Source: an uncultured delta proteobacterium (GTDB lineage Bacteria; Desulfobacterota; Binatia; UBA9968). From it: a stretch of DNA of 64,000 bases. This document shows positions 6,045 through 49,780 of this stretch, one piece after another. Each line of letters begins with the position of its first letter. Positions within the stretch are counted from its first letter, which is position 1. The position numbers and the translations under genes are program-made. A model generated the notes under the pieces. That model was not told where the DNA came from, did no database searches, and saw only the letters and a program-made list of their open reading frames with translations. Location: contig CAVUVW010000013.1 of NCBI GenBank assembly GCA_963745035.1, positions 96,001 to 160,000 of the forward strand, read 5' to 3'.

Positions 6045-7139
6045 ATGGCGTTTAACGGCCACACGATTATCGACGGCGACGGCCACGTGATCGAAGAATG
6101 CAAGGAAATCATCAACTACATGCCCCAGCCCTATCGCGACAAGTACGACACCCACAGTTTCTTCAATCCCTTTCCGCCGTTGGATCACCTGCACTCGTCC
6201 AACTTGCACGATTTTCAACCGGGCGCATTTAACAAGGTCGGCCCCGACGGCTGGGTGGCCTTTTTGGAAGACGTCGGCATCGAAGCCACCGTGCTCTACA
6301 CGACCCTGGGTCTCGCCTACGGCAAGATCGTCAGCCGCGATTGGGCCATCGACGTGGGCCGAGCGTACAATGATTGGCTTTACGATACTTATTTGAAGCG
6401 CAGCCCGCGTTTTAAGGGCATGGGTTTAATTCCGCTGCAGGAGCCGCAGGCCGCGGTGGAAGAGCTCAGAAGAATCGTTAAAGATCTCGGCATGTGCGGC
6501 GCCATGCTGCCGTCGACGGGCATTCAGGCCAATCTCGGCGACTCGCGCTACTGGCCGATCTACGAAGAGGCCGACCGCCTCGGCTGCGCCCTCAGCGTCC
6601 ATGGCGGCGCTCACGAAAACCTCGGACTCGATGACCTGACGCCCTACGCGCCGGTGCACTCGCTGGGCCACCCCTTCGGCCAAATGATTTCCTTCGGCGG
6701 CATGATTTTCAACGGCGTGTTCGACAAATTTCCGAACGTGAAATTCGGCTTCATGGAAGGCGGCGTCGCCTGGTTCTTGCTCTGCCTGGAGCGTTTCGAC
6801 CGCTCCTGGGAAACCCATATTCAGCACGACCCGCGCAAGCGCTTTCTCGAGCTTCGGCCCAAGGAAAAAGTGAGCGAATACATCGCGCGCCACGTCGAAG
6901 CGGGACAGATCTTCATCGGCTGCGAAGGCGAAGAGCCCGATATCGCCCACGCGATCAAACGCATCGGCAACAAGCCCTGGGTGTTTTCCAGCGACTATCC
7001 GCACGAAGTCAACAACGAGTTCTGCAAACACGAGATCAACGAGTTTCTCGAAAATAGAGAGATCAGCGACGCCGACAAAGCGGCCTTCCTGCATGGCAAC
7101 GCGCGCAGGTTTTATAGCCTGGGAGCCGCAGGGCTATGA
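6045..7139 (+). CDS. Amidohydrolase family protein
   Basis: IDGDGH, RAYNDW, GVFDKFPNVKFGFMEGG, FSSDYPH; ATG 6045 after AGGAGG. Confidence 0.85.
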   Translation: MAFNGHTIIDGDGHVIEECKEIINYMPQPYRDKYDTHSFFNPFPPLDHLHSSNLHDFQPGAFNKVGPDGWVAFLEDVGIEATVLYTTLGLAYGKIVSRDWAIDVGRAYNDWLYDTYLKRSPRFKGMGLIPLQEPQAAVEELRRIVKDLGMCGAMLPSTGIQANLGDSRYWPIYEEADRLGCALSVHGGAHENLGLDDLTPYAPVHSLGHPFGQMISFGGMIFNGVFDKFPNVKFGFMEGGVAWFLLCLERFDRSWETHIQHDPRKRFLELRPKEKVSEYIARHVEAGQIFIGCEGEEPDIAHAIKRIGNKPWVFSSDYPHEVNNEFCKHEINEFLENREISDADKAAFLHGNARRFYSLGAAGL

Positions 7140-7838
7140 ACTCCGAGCCGCGCATCGGACTGATTATCCCGTCGGCCAACAGCCTGACCGAGCCGCAATT
7201 TCATCGCTATCTGCCGCCCGAAGTCAGCGCGCACATCGCCCGGCTGCGCATGGCCGGCAAGTTTCGCAAGCCGCTCGAGGAATTGAAATCGTCGCTCATC
7301 GAAGCCGCCGAGGCGCTTTCCGACGTGCGGCCGGCGATGATCGTTTTCCATTGCACCGCAAATTCCATGGAGAAGGGCTTGGCGCACGAGGCCGCCATCG
7401 TCGATATCATCGAAACAGGCGAGCGGCTGTCCGACCATCTCGACCGCGCAAGCGATCACGCGCGCTTTTGATAAGGTTGGCATCAAAAAACTCGTGTTGA
7501 TCAGCCCGTACGTCAAAGCGACCAACGAGCACGAGGTGAACTATCTGGCCGAGGCGGGTTACACAGTCGTCCACGAGCTGGGACTCGGCTTGGAAAGCCA
7601 CGCCTATGCGAAAGTCACGCCGGAAGAATGGAAAAAAGTCGTCAAGGAAAACACCCGCGCCGACGCCGACGGCTACTTTCTCAGCTGCACCAACACGCGG
7701 ATGATCGAAGCGATCGACGATCTGGAGCGCGATCTAGGCAAGCCGGTGGTGAACAGCAACCAAGCCGTCCTCTGGACTTGCCTCGACAAACTCGGCATCC
7801 GCCACGTCGGCGAAAAGCTCGGCCGCTTGTTCCACTAG
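7136..7838 (+). CDS. Maleate cis-trans isomerase / Asp-Glu racemase family (one frameshift near 7420-7440)
   Basis: IGLIIPSAN..EP, FHCTANS, ISPY, LSCTNT, PVVNSNQA across two frames; ATGA overlap with the upstream gene. Confidence 0.8.
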
Positions 7839-7840
7839 CA

Positions 7841-10091
7841 TCAAACCAGACGGCCGTGTTTTACCAGCTCGGCCAGCTTCTCTCCCAGGCCGGTATTTCT
7901 TTTCTCCACCCGCAGGTTTCGGATCGCCATCGCCAGCGCCCTTTTGCTGCCGACCAAAACCACGAGCTTTTTGCCGCGCGTGACCGCCGTGTAGAGAATG
8001 CTGCGGTGCAGCAGCAAATAATGCGAAGTATGGAGCGGAATCACCACCGCCGGATACTCGCTACCCTGGCTTTTGTGCACTGACGTGGCGTAGGCCAGGC
8101 CGATCTCGTCGAGCTCATCGGAGTCGTAGGCCACCAGCTTGTCGAAAAAGTCGACCTTCACCCCGCCGTCCTCCCGGTCGATGGAGGCGATCCGGCCGAG
8201 GTCGCCGTTGAAAACTCCCTTGTCATAATTATTGCGCAGCTGCATGACCTTGTCGCCGGCGCGCAGCGCAAAGCCGCCGCGTTCGAGGATCTGGCCCGTC
8301 GGATTGAGCAGGCCCTGCAGCTCGCGGTTGAGATTGATCGTGCCCAGAAAGCCCGCGGTGCATCGGCGTCAGCACTTGGATCGTCTGCGCCACTTCGTGC
8401 GCGTCCAAGCTGCAAGGAACGCGGGATGCTTTCGCGCACGAGCTCCTTGACCGTGGCGAGAATCTCTTCTTCCGATTCGCGCGCGATAAAAACAGAAATC
8501 GCGCCTGTCGCGCGCCGTCGCCCCAGACCAGCGACTGACCTTCGAGAATGCGGTGCGCGTTGACGACGATCAGGCTCTCGCGGTCCTGGCGAAAGATGCG
8601 CCGCAGCACGACTTTGGGAACCGCGCCGGAATCGATCAGATCGCGGAGCACGCTGCCCGGCCCCACCGACGGCAACTGATCGACGTCGCCGACGAGAATC
8701 AGATGGCTATGCGGATCGACCGCGCGCAGCAGATGATCCATCAGGGCGAGATCCACCATCGACGCTTCATCGACGATGACGAAGTCCGCTTCCAGAGGAT
8801 TATCCTCGGTGCGCTGAAAGCCGCCTTCGCGCGGATTGAATTCGAGCAGACGATGAATCGTCATCGCTTCTTCGCCGGCGCTTTCGGCCATGCGCTTGGC
8901 GGCGCGCCCGGTCGGCGCCGCCAGGACAAAGCTGACTTCGGCGCGGCGCAAGATCGTCAAAAGCGCGGTCAACAACGTGGTCTTGCCCGTTCCCGGGCCG
9001 CCGGTGATGACCAGTACTTTTTCACGCAGCGCTTGCTCGGTGGCGCGCGCTTGATCCGCGTCCAAGCGTCACCGCCGAAGGCGCGAACAATTCCGGGCTG
9101 ATCAAATCGATGGCGCCGCGCGCCGCGCCCGTCGAGCGATCCCAGGGGCTCGGGATTTTTTCGCGTTGGATCGTCGACGGCGTCGCCAACAAGGCGCCGA
9201 ATGCCGCCGCCACGCGCCGCTCGGCGTGATAGAGCTCTTCAAGATAAACCTGGGTGGCGCCGCCCTCGGCTTCATGAAGAACCAAGTCGCCCCTGGCGGC
9301 CAGTTTCGAATACCGCCGCTTCGACCGGATCTTCGTCGATGTTGAGCAGCGCGGCGGCATTGCGCTTGAGCGACGCGAGCTCGGCAAAACAGTGGCCGCG
9401 CTCGGCCATTTCGCGCAAATGTGCAGCACGCCGGCTTGCACGCGCAGCGGAAAATCACCGCGGATGCCGATCTGATCGGCGAGCCGGTCGGCCAGCAGAA
9501 AGCCGATGCCGTGCACCTGCCGCGCCAGCGCGTAGGGATTCTCGCGCACTTGATCGATCGGTCGCGGCGCCGAAGACCCGGTAGATTCTCAGCGCCAAGG
9601 AAGCGCCGACGCCGTGGCCCTGCAGAAACACCATGACGTCCTGCATGCCGCGCTGGGCTTGCCAGGCTTGCATGATGCGCCGCGCGCGGGCTTCGCCGAT
9701 GCCGTCGACGTCGAGAATCCGCAGAGGCTGTTCGGACAACACGCGGAGCGTGTCGAGACCGAAAGCCGCCACCAATCGTTTCGCGTAAGTCGGGCCGATG
9801 CCTTTGATCATGCCGGAGCCGAGATACTTTTCGATGCCTTCGAGGGTCGCCGGATCGATCTTCTCCCATTGATGCACCTGGAACTGCAGGCCGTAGCGCG
9901 CATGGCGTTTCCACACGCCGGAGACTTTGAATTTCTTCGCCTTCCGCCACCGGAAAAATCGTCCCGACAACGGTGACGCCCGGTCCGCCGTCTTCATCGA
10001 GACGCGCGACGGTATAATGCGTTTCCGGGTGCTGGTAGGTGATCCGGCTGATCGTGCCTTGGAGCGAGGCGTATCGTTCGTTTTCGGCCAT
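7841..10091 (-). CDS. recD2: ATP-dependent RecD2-type helicase (multiple frameshifts)
   Basis: YLGSGMIKGIGP, ENPY.L, ITGGPGTGKT, APTGRAAKR, VDEASM, GDVDQLPSVGPG, VHKSQGSEY, LYTAVTR spread over successive frames. Confidence 0.88.
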
Positions 10092-16927: not shown

Positions 16928-19570
16928 ATGCGGTCTAGATAAACTGACGACAAAATCACAAGAAGCACTGCAGCAAGCTCAAGGGCTCGCCGAAAAGCGC
17001 AACCACCAGGCCATCGACGTAGAGCATTTGCTGTTCGCGTTGCTGGGACAGAAAGAGGGAGTGGTCTTCGCGCTGCTGCAAAAACTCGGCGTGCCGCTCG
17101 AGCACGGTAACCGAGCGATTGCAAAAAGCTCTGGATCGCTTGCCGCAAGTCACCGGCGCGGCCGGCCAAACTTACATCAGCGCCGCGCTTGAAAAAAGTT
17201 ATCGAAAGCGCCGAGTCCGAGGCCGAAGCGCTCAAGGACGAATACGTCTCCACCGAGCATCTGCTGCTCGCGATGGTGCAAGACAGCGGCGAAGCGGGCA
17301 AAGTCCTCAAAGAGCTCGGCGCCTCCCGCGAGAAGATTCTGCAACGCGCTTGGTCGAGCATTCGCGGCGCGCAGAGGATTACCGATCCCGAATCCGGAAG
17401 AAAAATATCAGGCTCTGGAAAAATATGGCCGCGACTTGACCGATCTGGCGCGCAAAGGAAAACTCGATCCGGTGATCGGCCGCGACGATGAGATTCGCCG
17501 GGTGATCCAGGTGCTGTCGCGCCGGACCAAGAATAATCCGGTGCTGATCGGCGAGCCCGGCGTCGGGAAAACCGCGATCGTCGAAGGACTGGCGCTGCGC
17601 ATCGTCAACGGCGACGTGCCTGAGGGGCTGAAAGAAAAGCGCCTGATCGCCCTCGATCTCGGCGCGCTGGTCGCCGGCGCAAAGTTTCGCGGCGAATTCG
17701 AGGACCGGCTCAAAGCCGTGCTCAAAGAAGTCACTGAGGCGAGCGGCCAGATCGTCCTTTTCATCGACGAGCTCCACACTCTGGTCGGCGCCGGCGCCGC
17801 CGAAGGCGCCATGGACGCCTCGAACATGCTCAAGCCCGCGCTCGCCCGCGGCGAGCTGCGCTGCGTCGGCGCGACGACCTTGGACGAATACCGTAAGCGC
17901 GTCGAGAAAGATCCGGCGCTGGAACGGCGCTTCCAGCAAGTCTATGTCGGCGAGCCTTCGGTCGAGGATACCATCGCGATCCTGCGCGGCTTGAAGGAAC
18001 GCTACGAAGTGCATCACGGCGTGCGCATCACCGACGGCGCGATCATCGGCGCCGCGACTTTGTCCCAGCGCTATATCAGCGACCGGTTCCTGCCGGACAA
18101 GGCCATCGATCTGATCGATGAGGCGGCGTCGCGCCTGCGCATCGAGATCGACAGCATGCCGATCGAGATCGACGAAGTGGAGCGAAAAATTCTCCAGCTC
18201 GAGATCGAAAAGCAGGCGCTCAAGCGCGAGGAGGACAAAGCCTCCCGGCAGCGGCTGGCCCAGCTCGAGCGCGAGATCGAGAATCTGAAAGAGACCTCCA
18301 GCGCTCTCAAAGCCCACTGGCAAAACGAAAAGGAGTCGATCCAGCGGATTCGCTCGCTCAAGGAAAAAATCGAGGCGACCAAGGTCGACGAGCAAAAGGC
18401 GCAGCGCGAGGGTGATCTTGAATCGCGCCGCGGAGCTGCGCTACGGCACTCTCACCCAGCTTCAGAAGGATCTTGAAGAGGCGAACCAGAAGCTCGCCGA
18501 GCTGCAGAAGAACCAAAAGATGCTCAAGGAAGAAGTCGACGCCGAGGACGTCGCCGAAGTCGTCGCCAAATGGACCGGCATTCCGGTTTCGAAGATGCTC
18601 GAGGGCGAGATTCAAAAACTGCTCAAGATGGAAGAGCGGCTGAAGCTCCGGGTGATCGGCCAGGAGAGCGCGATTCACGCGGTAGCCAACGCCGTGCGCC
18701 GCGCCCGCGCCGGCTTGCAGGACGAGAACCGGCCCATCGGCTCGTTCATCTTTCTCGGTCCGACCGGCGTCGGAAAAACCGAGCTGTGCCGGGCGCTGGC
18801 GGAATTTCTCTTCGACGATGAGCAGGCGATGGTGCGCCTCGACATGTCGGAGTTCATGGAGAAGCACTCGGTCTCGCGGCTGATCGGCGCGCCTCCCGGC
18901 TACGTCGGCTATGAAGAAGGCGGCTATTTGACCGAAGCCGTGCGCCGACGGCCGTATTCGGTTGTGCTGTTCGACGAGATCGAAAAGGCGCACCCGGACG
19001 TTTTCAATGCGCTTTTGCAGATTCTCGAAGACGGCCGCATGACCGACGGACAGGGCCGCACGGTGGATTTCAAGAACACGGTCATCATCATGACATCGAA
19101 CCTCGGCAGCCAGCACATTCAAGAGCTCGCTGCCAAGGATCGTAAGAGAAATGGAGCGGCTGGTCACCGCAGCCTTGCGCGAGTCGTTCAAGCCCGAGTT
19201 TTTGAACCGCGTCGACGAGACGATCATTTTCAACAATCTTGGCCGGGGCGAGATCGCCGCGATCGTCGAAATCCAGCTCAAGCGCCTGCGCAAGAATCTT
19301 GCGAGCCGGAAGATCTCGCTCGAGCTCACGGACGGCGCTAAGGAGCTGATCGCGGAGAAGGGCTACGATCCGGTCTACGGCGCCCGTCCGCTCAAGCGCG
19401 CGATCCAGACGATTGATTCAGGATCCGCTGGCGGTTAAGATTCTCGGCGGCGAATTCAAAGATGGCGATCGGGTCGAAGTCGAGGCGGAAACCGACGAGT
19501 TAAGCTTCCACCGCGGAGCGCCGCCGTCTTCCATGACGCGTACGAGCACGAGCAGAGGACGATTCATTGA
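16928..19570 (+). CDS. clpB: ATP-dependent disaggregase ClpB (multiple frameshifts)
   Basis: [34 protein letters not shown], coiled-coil M domain with [28 protein letters not shown]. Confidence 0.93.
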
Positions 19571-31245: not shown

Positions 31246-32126
31246 AACACTCCTCGCGCACAGCGCTGTTGTTCTTGCTGCCGAGTTTCTTCTTTGTCGG
31301 TCTGTTTTCGCTTTTTCCGATCTTCGAGTCGTTTCGCTGGAGTTTCTATCGCCTGATTCTGACTCTGCCCTGGCTCGGTCAGAAAATGGTCGGGCTCGAG
31401 AATTACACGGATCTCGTCACCGACTTGGTCGCGCGCGACGCGTTCCGGACGACTTTGCTGTTCATCGCGGTGACGATTCCCATCGAGCTGGTCTTGGGAC
31501 TTGGGATCGCGCTGGTATTGAACCAAACCTTTCGCGGCCGCGGGCTGCTGCGCGCGGTTGTGCTGATCCCTTGGGCGATTCCCACCGTGGTCGCGTCGCA
31601 GATGTGGCGTTTCATCTTCAACGACCGCTACGGGCTGGTGAACTTCGCTCTTTTCGGCGGCGACGTTTCCCGTTATCTCGCCCCGTTGGCCGATCCGGAG
31701 CTCGCTCTGGTTGCGATCATGATCGCAGAAATTTGGAAGACCACACCGTTTGCCGCGTTGATCCTGCTCGCCGGTCTCCAGGGCATCTCCGACGATCTCT
31801 ACGAGGCGGCGCAGGTGGACGGCGCCTCGGCTTGGCAGCAGTTTCGCCACGTGACCCTGCCGCTGCTCACTCCCGCGCTGCTTCTCGCTCTGCTGTTTCG
31901 CACCATCGACTCCTTGCGCGTGTTCGATCTGGTCTTCGTCATGACCCAAGGCGGACCGGCGGACGCAACCAATGTGCTGCAGTTTTACGGCTACAAAAAG
32001 ACTTTCGCCGAAGGCATGGTCGGCTACGGCTCGGCGATCGCCGTGACCGTATTTTTGTTGTCGCTGGCGCTGGCACTGGTTTATTTGCGCGCGCTCTCGT
32101 CGAGCCGGTTGCGTGAGGCAAATTAA
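31242..32126 (+). CDS. Sugar ABC permease (MalF-like)
   Basis: VGLENY, LIPWAIP, WKTTPF..LLAGLQ..LYEAAQVDGA EAA loop. Confidence 0.9.
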   Translation: MKHSSRTALLFLLPSFFFVGLFSLFPIFESFRWSFYRLILTLPWLGQKMVGLENYTDLVTDLVARDAFRTTLLFIAVTIPIELVLGLGIALVLNQTFRGRGLLRAVVLIPWAIPTVVASQMWRFIFNDRYGLVNFALFGGDVSRYLAPLADPELALVAIMIAEIWKTTPFAALILLAGLQGISDDLYEAAQVDGASAWQQFRHVTLPLLTPALLLALLFRTIDSLRVFDLVFVMTQGGPADATNVLQFYGYKKTFAEGMVGYGSAIAVTVFLLSLALALVYLRALSSSRLREAN

Positions 32127-32942
32127 TGAAGCGCACTACCGCGATTGTGCTGTTCGCCGCGCTCATCACGCTGTATTGCCTGCTGCCGTTTCTTTGGTTT
32201 GTTTTGACTTCGCTCAAGACCAGCGCCGAACTGGCGGCGATTCCCCCGGTGTGGATTCCATCGTTTCATTTGAGCTTCTACGAGTCCGCCCTGCGCGAGT
32301 ACGGTTTGCTTCACTATCTGGTCAACAGCGTTCTGGTTGCCGGTTCGGCGACCCTGGTAACGATCATGCGTCGCTTCGCTCGCGGCCTACGCCATCGCCC
32401 GCTTTGACTTGCCGTGGACCCGTTTCTACCTGCTTCTGTTGCTGGCCATTTCCATGTTCCCGCAGATCGCCATTGCCGGGCCGGTGTGGAAGATCCTCGA
32501 TCGCCTGGCGTGGCTCAACACCTACCACGGCCTGGTCGCCGCCTATATCGCGCTGTCTCTGCCGCTGGCGATCTGGATTCTCACGACATTCTTTCGCGAA
32601 GTGCCCAACGAGATCGAGGAGGCGGCGTTGATCGACGGCTGCAGCCGTCTTCAGGTGCTCTACAAAGTCGTTTTGCCGCTTGCCGCGCCGGGCATCTTCA
32701 CCGCTGCGCTGCTGGTTTTTATCCACGCCTGGAACGAATTCTTTTTCGCGCTGATCATCATGACCGATCCGACCGTGCAGACTTTGCCGGTCGGCATCGC
32801 GCTTTTTCCCGGAGAATACACCATGCCGTGGGGCGAAATTTCCGCCGCTTCGACAATCGCGACCATTCCGCTGATCCTGCTGACGTTAATTTTTCAGCGC
32901 GGCATCGTGCGCGGTCTGTCGGCCGGCGCCGTAAAAGGTTAG
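32126..32942 (+). CDS. Sugar ABC permease (MalG-like; frameshift near 32370)
   Basis: TSLKT, IEEAALIDGC, AWNEFFFAL, GLSAGAVKG. Confidence 0.88.
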
Positions 32943-47320: not shown

Positions 47321-48818
47321 ATGATCCCCGTTTCTGAAAACCATCCCGCCGCCCGATTCGCCTTTGACAATACCTACGCGCGCGAGCTTGAGGATTTCTA
47401 CGTAAGCTGGAAGGCAACGCAAGTCGCGCGGCCCCGGCTCGTCAAGCTCAACCGTGAGTTGGCCGAAGAACTCGCGCTGGACGCCGGCGCTCTCGATTCC
47501 GAGGAAGGCGCGCGGATCTTTGCGGGCAATGAAACCCCCGAAGGCGCGGCGCCGCTGGCTCAAGCGTACGCCGGCCATCAGTTCGGCGGGTTCGTGCCCC
47601 AACTCGGCGACGGCCGGGCGCTGCTCCTCGGCGAGGTGATCGACCGTCACGGACGCCGCCGTGACATTCAGCTCAAAGGCTCGGGCCCCACCCCCTTTTC
47701 GCGCGCCGGCGACGGCCGAGCAGCGCTCGGGCCGGTGCTCCGTGAATATTTGCTCGGCGAAGCGATGCACGCGCTCGGCATTCCGACGACGCGGGCGCTC
47801 GCCGCCGTCATCACGGGCGAGCCAGTCTTTCGCGAGACTGCGCTGCCGGGTGCGGTTTTGACGCGCGTTGCCGCGAGCCACATCCGTGTCGGCACTTTCC
47901 AATTTTTCGCCGCGCGCGGCGAGCAGGACAAGGTGCGCCGCCTGGCCGACTACGTGATCGATCGCCACTACCCCGAACTAAGGGAACACGCCAATCCCTA
48001 TGTGGCATTGCTCGAGCGCGTGCGCGACAGTCAGGCCGCCCTGGTCGCGAGCTGGATGCATGTGGGGTTCATCCACGGTGTGATGAACACCGACAACATG
48101 GCGATCTCCGGAGAGACCATCGACTACGGCCCCTGCGCCTTCATGGATCACTACGATCCGGCCACAGTGTTCAGCTCCATCGACACTCGCGGCCGCTATG
48201 CCTACGCCAGTCAGCCGAAGATCGCGCAATGGAATATTGCGCGCTTTGCCGAGACCCTCCTGCCTCTCATCGATACCGATGGCAAGCGGGCGGTCGCGCG
48301 GGCCACTGAAGCGGTCAATGCCTTTTCGGAACAATACGAACGTCACTGGCTAAAGGGCATGCGTGCCAAGCTCGGGCTGATCTGGTGAAGAGGAGGCCGA
48401 TCTAAACCTCGCCACGGGATTTCTGACCGCGATGGATGGCAGAAACGTCGACCACACGTTGGCTTTCCGTTACCTCGCCGATGCGGCCTTGGGTCGGGAG
48501 GAACCGATCCGCGCGCTGTTTGCCGATCCCTCCGCTTACGATCTCTGGAGCGAACACTGGCGCGCGCGGCTTGCGCGCGACGCGATGGCGCCTTCGGAGC
48601 GAGCGCAGGCGATGCGCCGCGTCAATCCAGCGTTCATTCCGCGCAACCATCGCGTCGAGGAAGCCTTGAGCGCCGCAGTGGAGCGCGGCGATTACGCGCC
48701 TTTCGAGACCCTGCTGCATATCCTATCGCGTCCCTTCGACGATCAGCCCGAGTTCGTCGCCTTTGCCGAACCTCCGCCGGAAGGGCAAGGTCATTACCGA
48801 ACCTTCTGAGGTACCTGA
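47321..48818 (+). CDS. selO: Protein adenylyltransferase SelO/YdiU (one frameshift near 48383; in-frame TGA 48807-48809, candidate Sec)
   Basis: [55 protein letters not shown]-terminus YRTF-TGA-GT-TGA. Confidence 0.9.
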
Positions 48819-48823
48819 GTCGA

Positions 48824-48841
48824 CGCGTCCGGGCCGACGCG
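48824..48841 (+). promoter_or_regulatory. Candidate bacterial SECIS hairpin
   Basis: CGCGTC-CGGGCC-GACGCG; loop begins 21 nt after the in-frame TGA and has G at its second position. Confidence 0.45.
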
Positions 48842-48886
48842 AAATTATCACAAGCTTCGTCAGCAAGAACCAAGGATCGGAGATTG

Positions 48887-48969
48887 CACCGCAGAGCCGC
48901 TGAGGGCGCCGAGTAAAAGTTTTTGATAGACATTGCTCCGAACTCAGCGAACTCTGTGCCTCTGCGGTG
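48887..48969. repeat. Palindromic element of 9-nt (C)GCAGAG-like units
   Basis: CACCGCAGAGCCGCTGAGGGCGCCGAG ... CTCAGCGAACTCTGTGCCTCTGCGGTG. Confidence 0.7.
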
Positions 48970-49021: not shown

Positions 49022-49780
49022 ATGGCGCAAAAATTTTACGTGGTTTGGTCGGGACGGCAGACCGGCGTATTCACCGACTGGGCAACGACCCAGCGCGCCG
49101 TGGATAAGTTTGTCGGCGCGCGCTTCAAGTCCTTCCCGACCCGTGCGGAAGCGGAGGAAGCGTTTGCGCGCGGCGGCGCCGCAAACGTTCCGAACAGAAC
49201 GTCAAGCGATCAAAAAGCCGGTGCACGCGCAAATAACCGCGCTGCCCCGCATAACGCTCACCAATTCGATGTCACCATCTATTGCGACGGCGCCTGCGAG
49301 CCCAATCCCGGCAACGCCGGCTCCGGCATCGTAGTGTATCGAGCCGGCAAACTCGCGGAGTTATGGTACGGCCTGTACAACCCGATGGGCACCAACAACA
49401 CCGCCGAGCTGAATGCTCTCTATCACGCGCTGCGCATGGCCGAAGCAGAGATCGACGCCGGCAAAACCGTCGAGGTGTGCAGCGACTCGGCGTACTCCAT
49501 CAATTGCGTTCGCACCTGGGCGTCAAGCTGGGAGAAGAAAGGCTGGAAAAAATCCGGCGGCGAGATCAAGAACCTGGAAATCATCCAGGCCTGTTACACG
49601 ATCTACGGCCGTATCAAAGACAAGCTCACACTTACCCACGTCGCCGGCCACGCCGGCAACGAAGGAAACGAGCTCGCCGACCGCATGGCCATGCTCGCCG
49701 TGCAGAGCAAACAAAAAGACCTGCGTCTCTATCAGGAAACCATGGATATCCCGACGCTGCTCAAGATGCGCGCGGGGTGA
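49022..49780 (+). CDS. rnhA: Ribonuclease HI with N-terminal hybrid-binding (viroplasmin) domain
   Basis: KFYVVWSGRQTGVFTDW..FKSF.T..EA; YCDGAC.PNPG, TNNTAEL, SDSAY, HV.GHAG.EGNELAD. Confidence 0.9.
   Translation: MAQKFYVVWSGRQTGVFTDWATTQRAVDKFVGARFKSFPTRAEAEEAFARGGAANVPNRTSSDQKAGARANNRAAPHNAHQFDVTIYCDGACEPNPGNAGSGIVVYRAGKLAELWYGLYNPMGTNNTAELNALYHALRMAEAEIDAGKTVEVCSDSAYSINCVRTWASSWEKKGWKKSGGEIKNLEIIQACYTIYGRIKDKLTLTHVAGHAGNEGNELADRMAMLAVQSKQKDLRLYQETMDIPTLLKMRAG

Follow-up and report, generated by a model that had tools for sequence, protein, structure and literature searches.

SelO, also called YdiU, is a protein adenylyltransferase (AMPylase) and is among the most conserved kinase-fold enzymes. 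The C-terminal cysteine (Cys) of bacterial SelO is described as forming a regulatory disulfide with Cys272 of the activation loop, and selenocysteine (Sec) is described at this place in higher eukaryotes (PMC7278666). Eukaryotic SELENOO, the mitochondrial selenoprotein O, carries Sec near its C-terminus where the characterised bacterial proteins have Cys (PMC7278666, PMC12409994), and its description includes a CXXU motif, in which U denotes Sec, and a eukaryotic selenocysteine insertion sequence (SECIS) within the 3' UTR (untranslated region) (PMC7278666, PMC10778597). One review states that all prokaryotic SelO have Cys (PMC7278666). In 2025, a deep-Sep prediction reported a 'selenoprotein O-like' selenoprotein (COG0397/PF02696) in Desulfosediminicola ganghwensis IMCC35004 (PMC12013277), and the table of a 2026 review contains the entry 'Selenoprotein O-like protein, PF02696, 1 Sec, WP_136798779.1' (PMC13188914). 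The present analysis concerns a SelO gene of an uncultured delta proteobacterium of the Binatia, located at 47,321–48,818 on the plus strand of a 64,000-nucleotide stretch (the window) of contig CAVUVW010000013.1. The gene ends TAC CGA ACC TTC TGA GGT ACC TGA and, judged from its sequence and that of its relatives, very probably encodes a SelO/YdiU protein adenylyltransferase with Sec as the antepenultimate residue.

With a PF02696 protein, one predicted Sec and a Sec-utilising bacterium, the window gene fits the published definition of the SelO-like family. It resembles the Desulfosediminicola gene in being a bacterial SelO-family gene with one in-frame TGA, Cys homologues and a predicted bacterial SECIS downstream. 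The published position of Sec is given only in a figure, and the word 'C-terminal' does not occur in the text (PMC12013277), so that Sec at the same alignment position is a possible likeness. The Desulfosediminicola record was not among the 48 loci of the pattern scan reported below, perhaps merely on account of a different local sequence. The lineages found here are different ones, namely Candidatus Binatia and 'delta proteobacterium' records together with Reyranella. The idea of a bacterial Sec-SelO, raised for this DNA in an earlier note made from the sequence alone, is not new, having been predicted in 2025 (PMC12013277); since that prediction had already been made, the gain here lies in breadth (new lineages) and in comparative evidence, not in a new principle. 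The main text of BSepDB (PMC13326102) does not mention a SelO-like selenoprotein. A literature search for Binatota in connection with selenocysteine returned one unrelated paper, and another, directed at prokaryotic selenoproteins and selenoprotein O, brought up nothing more.

Eukaryotic SELENOO belongs to the same protein family and has Sec near the C-terminus as well. However, the genes described here end in Y-R/Q-T-F/Y-U-G-T with no Cys at position −3 and carry a bacterial-type hairpin of 5–7 bp that begins 13–14 nt after the UGA. The window gene, with YRTF-U-GT in place of CXXU and a short bacterial-type hairpin instead of a eukaryotic SECIS, therefore falls outside SELENOO. It is like the SelO proteins of Escherichia coli and Pseudomonas syringae (6EAC, 6K20, 6III, 9JYM) in its YdiU family membership and aligned active-site motifs, and the C-terminal Cys of those proteins stands at the place of the TGA. 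Those proteins differ in having Cys, not Sec, and in the partner residue, as Cys272 (E. coli numbering) aligns with Phe284 of the window protein, whereas the present subgroup has an invariant Cys right after the motif DYGP, which aligns with Phe260 of E. coli SelO. Engineered C-terminal Sec proteins of E. coli, such as the TrxR1 constructs, have been made by appending the fdh SECIS after the open reading frame (ORF) (PMC10778597). They share with the present locus a Sec codon few codons before the stop and a bacterial SECIS in untranslated sequence, but the layout found here is natural rather than engineered.

Gene anatomy and the Sec and Cys forms of relatives

The N-terminal part of the gene, the kinase-like AMPylase core with DYGPC, occupies 47,321–48,385 (355 codons, PF02696), or 47,321–48,388 with the stop of this frame (frame A) included. 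The C-terminal part of 142 codons follows at 48,381–48,806 in the +1 frame. The codons TAC (48,795–48,797) and TTC (48,804–48,806) precede the in-frame TGA (48,807–48,809), which is read as Sec and aligns with the Cys of homologues, and Gly and Thr (GGT ACC, 48,810–48,815) follow it before the true stop TGA (48,816–48,818), the last three codons together spanning 48,810–48,818. This ending and the hairpin behind it agree with the earlier note, which had proposed the TGA as a Sec codon; the proposal is supported by the Sec machinery of the genome, the TGA/TGC alignment of relatives and a conserved hairpin, as given below.

Comparison with Pfam assigned the N-terminal part to the SelO family PF02696 (E 2.3e-106, profile 5–340 of 466, 356.8 bits against a cut-off of 22.8), and the C-terminal part alone matched profile positions 398–464 with 22.1 bits, slightly below that cut-off. 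The intact relative L023 reached 588.4 bits against the NF000658 cut-off of 431 and stayed below two equivalog cut-offs (850 and 900), which indicates family membership and not equivalog membership. The N-terminal part could be aligned with the solved SelO structures of E. coli and P. syringae (E 1e-79 to 1e-84), and the kinase-like active-site motifs were identical or conservatively matched. The assignment of catalytic residues among these motifs follows the literature. AMPylase activity of the window SelO is accordingly a prediction from family membership and aligned motifs. The C-terminal part aligned with residues 348–487 of 6EAC, a P. syringae SelO chain of 488 residues, in which Cys486 corresponds to the TGA. 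The ratio of nonsynonymous to synonymous substitution rates (dN/dS) of the 142 C-terminal codons was 0.13–0.20 against four relatives, with no stop inside. If the four bases are taken as equally frequent, we calculate that Gly-Thr-stop would follow a random stop codon in frame in approximately 2 of 10,000 cases.

A search with the C-terminal 145 residues revealed the SelO C-terminus in 24 of 60 relatives, and the codon aligned with the TGA was TGA in 14 of them and TGC in 10. In most of the TGA forms, the TGA closes an intact open frame of approximately 500 codons. Gly-Thr-stop followed the TGA in every one of the 15 TGA-form genomes of this protein search (the 14 relatives and the own genome), with synonymous variation in both codons (GGT/GGC/GGG and ACC/ACT/ACA). 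A DNA pattern scan (Y-[RQH]-T-[FY]-TGA-G-T-stop) of one genome per prokaryote species returned 48 loci, which consisted of 26 SelO genes with TGA and 22 chance matches (approximately 35 expected by our own arithmetic). Record titles of the 26 genes were mostly Candidatus Binatia, 'delta proteobacterium' and Deltaproteobacteria, the other labels being Reyranella (two) and Acidiferrales, Pseudomonadota and Chloroflexota (one each). The same pattern applied to metagenome contigs gave at least 118 loci, at least 84 of them SelO with TGA. Among 93 listed contexts, in which only the N positions are informative, the Gly codon was GGC in 46, GGT in 37, GGG in 8 and GGA in 2. By these sequence matches, predicted Sec-SelO is common in soil Binatia-type bacteria. 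In a sample of Reyranellaceae, SelO was present in 51 of 61 genomes and carried TGA in two; three Reyranella-type genomes carry the same TGA.

A quick maximum-likelihood tree of SelO was constructed from 44 rows (26 Sec, 18 Cys), in which the own gene was represented by its N-terminal part only and loci with open frames below 380 codons were excluded. The tree required seven changes between Sec and Cys, at least three of which are forced by well-supported branches, and the three Reyranella-type Sec genes formed a supported clade amid Cys forms of their own family. Because the root of the tree is not established, the direction of these changes is inferred: Sec would be old in the Binatia-type clade, several replacements of Sec by Cys would have been followed by SECIS decay, and a separate gain would have occurred in Reyranella. 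In two relatives, the SelO C-terminus also occurs in an additional, partial copy (L047, G004:C9:295137-295385; L049, G003:C29:435912-436154), each a Cys form with a 97-codon open frame approximately 3.5 kb from the full gene.

The SECIS-like hairpin and the Sec machinery

The hairpin behind the gene lies at 48,824–48,841 on the plus strand and consists of the arms CGCGTC (48,824–48,829) and GACGCG (48,836–48,841) with the loop CGGGCC (48,830–48,835). It starts at a distance of 14 nt from the UGA, against 13 nt in most relatives, and 5 nt behind the true stop codon, and is thus situated wholly in the 3' UTR at a SECIS-compatible loop distance, as the earlier note had it; the distance of 21 nt from the first TGA (48,807–48,809) to the loop start (48,830) was likewise reproduced. 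Bacterial SECIS elements have a G as the first or second base of the loop, and that of E. coli fdhF is much longer than the window hairpin. The distance of the loop from the UGA is given as 16–37 nt (PMC10778597). A loose SECIS rule was therefore defined as a loop start 16–37 nt from the UGA with a G within the first two loop bases, and the window hairpin (loop start +21, CGGGCC) falls within it, as do all 29 distinct Sec forms obtained from genomes. When hairpins were tabulated by script for genomes and metagenomes together, each of the 93 distinct TGA-form contexts among the matches listed had one, with at least 5 pairs, a loop start 18–22 nt from the UGA and G at the first or second loop position; these contexts have at least 40 nt downstream, and two further contexts were too short. 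The loop was CGGGC in 68 of the 93 listed contexts and CGGGN or GGG in most of the remaining ones.

The hairpin core GCGTCCGGG-[C/T]-GACGC did not vary among the 15 TGA-form genomes, in contrast to the third codon positions nearby, and the sequence past the hairpin diverged immediately. At the RNA level, the core of Binatia-type genes reads GCGUC-CGGGN-GACGC and is conserved more strictly than the adjacent codons. The 16-nt core occurs only once in the 7.4-Mb genome and is therefore not a dispersed repeat. Binatia-type Cys forms have unrelated sequence behind the stop, or decayed copies of the hairpin such as GACGAGTCAGGCAGACGC. The earlier note had asked for relatives that share the TGA, aligned with Cys, and the hairpin, and both could be found in many relatives.

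Variation within the stem was examined for signs of pairing. In the Reyranella-type stem CUGCUC/GAGCGG, which lies at an equal distance from the UGA, pairs 3 and 4 are flipped with respect to GCGUC/GACGC, and one Reyranella-like contig has its closing pair flipped (CUGCUCG-GUU-CGAGCGG). A stem pair changes from U-A to U.G with pairing kept in three contexts, and pair 6 in 26 Binatia-type forms is C-G in 7, U-A in 3 and a mismatch in 16. A 9-bp stem of another sequence, AGCGAGCCG/CGGUUUGCU, occurs in a single Binatia-type contig. As the Reyranella rows were misplaced in the MAFFT alignment A2, the hairpins were tabulated by script in its place. Evidence for pairing beyond mere sequence conservation is thus limited but consistent, coming from few lineages that point the same way. 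Searching the hairpin region against Rfam (E up to 10) gave no relevant family, and a terminator scan of the region gave no terminator-like site; a U-tract is absent 3' of the stem. The selD SECIS of the same genome is unlike the SelO hairpin, so that a loop consensus for the whole organism could not be derived.

The hairpin region of the window has two bases more (G 48,822 and C 48,834–48,835) than every relative and metagenome contig, and these are probably assembly indels. A different, strong and conserved hairpin, GGCCGAGC-GAA/AAA-GCTCGGCC, could be observed right behind the SelO stop at several Reyranellaceae Cys loci (L104, L105, L108, L110, L111, L115 and L121). It is probably a terminator or repeat element unrelated to the SECIS-like hairpin.

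The genome contains the Sec machinery that the earlier note had named as a check, i.e., selA, selB, selD and the selC product tRNA-Sec (UCA). The genes selA (592 bits), selB (347 bits) and selD (385 bits) stand side by side on contig C17, and the tRNA-SeC with anticodon tca is located at C17:371273-371363, 52 kb beyond them. selD itself is of the Sec type, its canonical site being occupied by an in-frame TGA (AAG-TGA-AAKLGP). Of the 61 genomes in the order-level sample, 54 had selB above the cut-off, a tally that includes G005 and G035 (flagged as unpublished), which indicates that the whole order-level group uses Sec. selB was also over the cut-off in both Reyranella genomes tested (G061, G062), and the components found in G019 were selA, a fragment of selB and selD of the Sec type.

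Gene anatomy, Sec machinery, the alignment of Sec with Cys and a hairpin in every Sec form examined were established, and a course of translation can be proposed on them. SelB-GTP with Sec-tRNA(Sec) would bind the apical loop CGGGN of the short hairpin, and the UGA at 48,807–48,809 would thereby be recoded. After Sec, translation would add Gly-Thr and then stop. With Sec in place of the C-terminal Cys, the product would be a selenium-dependent, redox-switched AMPylase. SelB binding, selenium insertion and the selenenylsulfide considered in the last section are inferred.

Frame breaks and alternative readings

The SelO copy of the window is frame-broken as assembled, which the earlier note had omitted. 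Frame A ends in TGG TGA at 48,383–48,388 (stop 48,386–48,388); from 48,381 onward the remainder of the gene is read in the +1 frame, which amounts to one extra base within 48,381–48,388 on the plus strand in comparison with all relatives. The own assembly has one base more at 48,381–48,382 than the relatives G027, G029 and G024. The gene was compared with Logan contigs of public runs, gene stretches lacking a contig in run X1 being uninformative. One base at 48,381/48,382 is missing from contigs of two other studies (X2 record 21, X6 record 29), and both parts then share a single frame. A contig of an RNA library (X15 record 16; 48,547–48,896, 17 differences) spans the gene end and the hairpin and is no proof of transcription.

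Four further genes of the window are split over neighbouring frames, with Pfam domains running across the breaks: a ClpB-type AAA+ chaperone (17,193–19,341, plus strand), a RecD2-like helicase (7,841–9,068, minus strand), a second ABC permease (32,117–32,942, plus strand) and an arylmalonate-decarboxylase-like (Amdase-like) gene (7,118–7,838, plus strand). Together with SelO, at least five genes of the window are split, and the split genes point to approximately one indel per 13 kb in the assembly, or to many pseudogenes. Relatives whose assemblies likewise consist of few contigs (G018, G019, G027) show similar breaks. Because at least five genes of the window are split, the contigs of other studies lack the extra base and the dN/dS after the break is low, the frame breaks are likely to be assembly indel errors. 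The earlier note had stated that substitutions are not the dominant error type of this assembly, and the errors seen, in at least five split window genes and a split selB, are indeed indels. The next gene downstream of SelO (49,022–49,780, plus strand) encodes a 252-residue product whose N-terminus resembles, by eye, the hybrid-binding domain of RNase H1-type proteins.

Several results weigh against the interpretation of the window gene as a working Sec-SelO, and some of them favour a pseudogene, i.e., a Sec-SelO type that is real in the lineage with an own copy in which the insertion at 48,381–48,382, and perhaps the break in selB, is genuine. selB (C17:316680-318567, locus L001/L007) is split in two frames at approximately C17:318052-318074, where 50 relatives have a single frame, and if this break and that of SelO are real the strain makes no Sec-SelO. 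No long homopolymer adjoins the SelO break. The frame-restoring contigs differ from the window at 5–8 other positions in approximately 365 nt and so represent close strains, not the same DNA. Nevertheless, a pseudogene is regarded as unlikely. An indel error is the simpler account when at least four other genes in the 64-kb window are split likewise and comparable breaks occur in few-contig assemblies; the frame is restored by two contigs from two other studies, the 142 codons behind the break remain free of stops at a dN/dS of 0.13–0.20, and selD retains its own Sec codon.

Other results bear on the TGA itself, which gene callers read as an ordinary stop; SelO would then lack its last three residues, and the hairpin would serve transcript stabilisation or termination. 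Hairpins are common after stop codons. Of 35 Cys forms, five passed the loose SECIS rule, all of them among the 23 Reyranellaceae forms and none among the 12 Binatia-type ones, and four of the five carry the unrelated strong GC hairpin GGCCGAGCGAAGCTCGGCC. Folding of the 76-nt region alone was no better than that of shuffled sequences (z = 0.14), so that the support comes from comparison with relatives and not from folding energy. The stem is near-invariant in Binatia-type genes, which leaves covariation to a small number of lineages, and genomes that are related do not count as independent cases of stem variation. The own 6-nt loop CGGGCC with the extra G before the stem occurs in 1 of the 93 listed contexts. 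The scan pattern demands GGN ACN TRA, so Gly-Thr-stop is present in the scan matches by construction. Sec components were scarce in three TGA-form genomes: none of selA, selB, selD and tRNA-Sec was found in G027 (92% complete), tRNA-Sec was the only component found in G064 (2.2 Mb), and a selD fragment at a contig edge the only one in G009. As all four Sec genes of the own genome lie within 56 kb of one contig, one absent contig would remove all of them, which is an explanation and not a demonstration. Against an ordinary stop, the TGA stands exactly at the conserved Cys, and an in-frame Gly-Thr-stop with synonymous changes follows it in 15 of 15 genomes from the protein search, a set not selected by the pattern. 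Moreover, the hairpin keeps its 18–22 nt in 93 of 93 listed contexts and is lost or decayed where the codon is TGC, its stem lacks a U-tract and a terminator-like site was not found in the region, and selB is present across most of the order sample; an ordinary stop is thus very unlikely. An error for TGC or TGT, for which the error-prone assembly might speak, is almost certainly not the explanation, as 14 relatives, 26 species-level genome records and at least 84 metagenome contigs carry this TGA as well, and the errors seen in the assembly are indels. Contigs of other public runs that cover the site showed no difference at 48,807–48,809 among the 40 listed of 91.

A candidate Cys partner and a possible selenium switch

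Under the favoured interpretation of a Sec-containing SelO, the partner of the C-terminal Sec can be considered. A Cys directly after DYGP was present in 43 of 44 SelO rows, in Sec and Cys forms alike; in the 44th (L037), the motif pattern had no match and the residue was not read. The window gene encodes it as TGC at 48,134–48,136 (plus strand, own residue 272), and it is the only Cys in the own SelO and in 8 of 25 full-length Sec rows. This distribution suggests the invariant Cys of DYGPC as a candidate selenenylsulfide partner of the C-terminal Sec. In 9 of 12 Binatia-type Cys forms and in only 1 of 26 Sec forms (L042), an additional Cys precedes the C-terminal one by five residues (GCYRTFCGT; window position 48,792–48,794); the remaining Sec forms have R or H there. 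Since related genomes do not provide independent cases, the difference is no more than a hint of another resolving Cys in the Cys forms.

A model that we put forward tentatively, and that is doubtful, treats the UGA as a selenium gauge giving two forms of SelO. When selenium is present, the full-length enzyme would be made and its C-terminal Sec would lock onto the invariant activation-loop Cys of DYGP-C, which lies 12 residues from Cys272 of E. coli SelO, so that a selenenylsulfide redox switch with another geometry would result. If selenium is lacking, translation would end at the UGA, and the enzyme, three residues shorter, could not be locked.

The hairpin represents a compact natural bacterial SECIS wholly behind the stop codon with a near-invariant 15-nt core. 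Since such genes are called three residues short, this core is useful for annotation, and the hairpin may serve the engineering of C-terminal Sec proteins. Common soil bacteria of one clade mix Sec and Cys forms of SelO, some of the Sec forms having just one other Cys. This mixture is a natural experiment on what Sec contributes to the redox switch of an AMPylase, in proteins far simpler than human mitochondrial SelO. If the selenium gauge holds true, the repeated replacement of Sec by Cys with SECIS decay in soil Binatia and the independent gain in Reyranella would track the supply of selenium.

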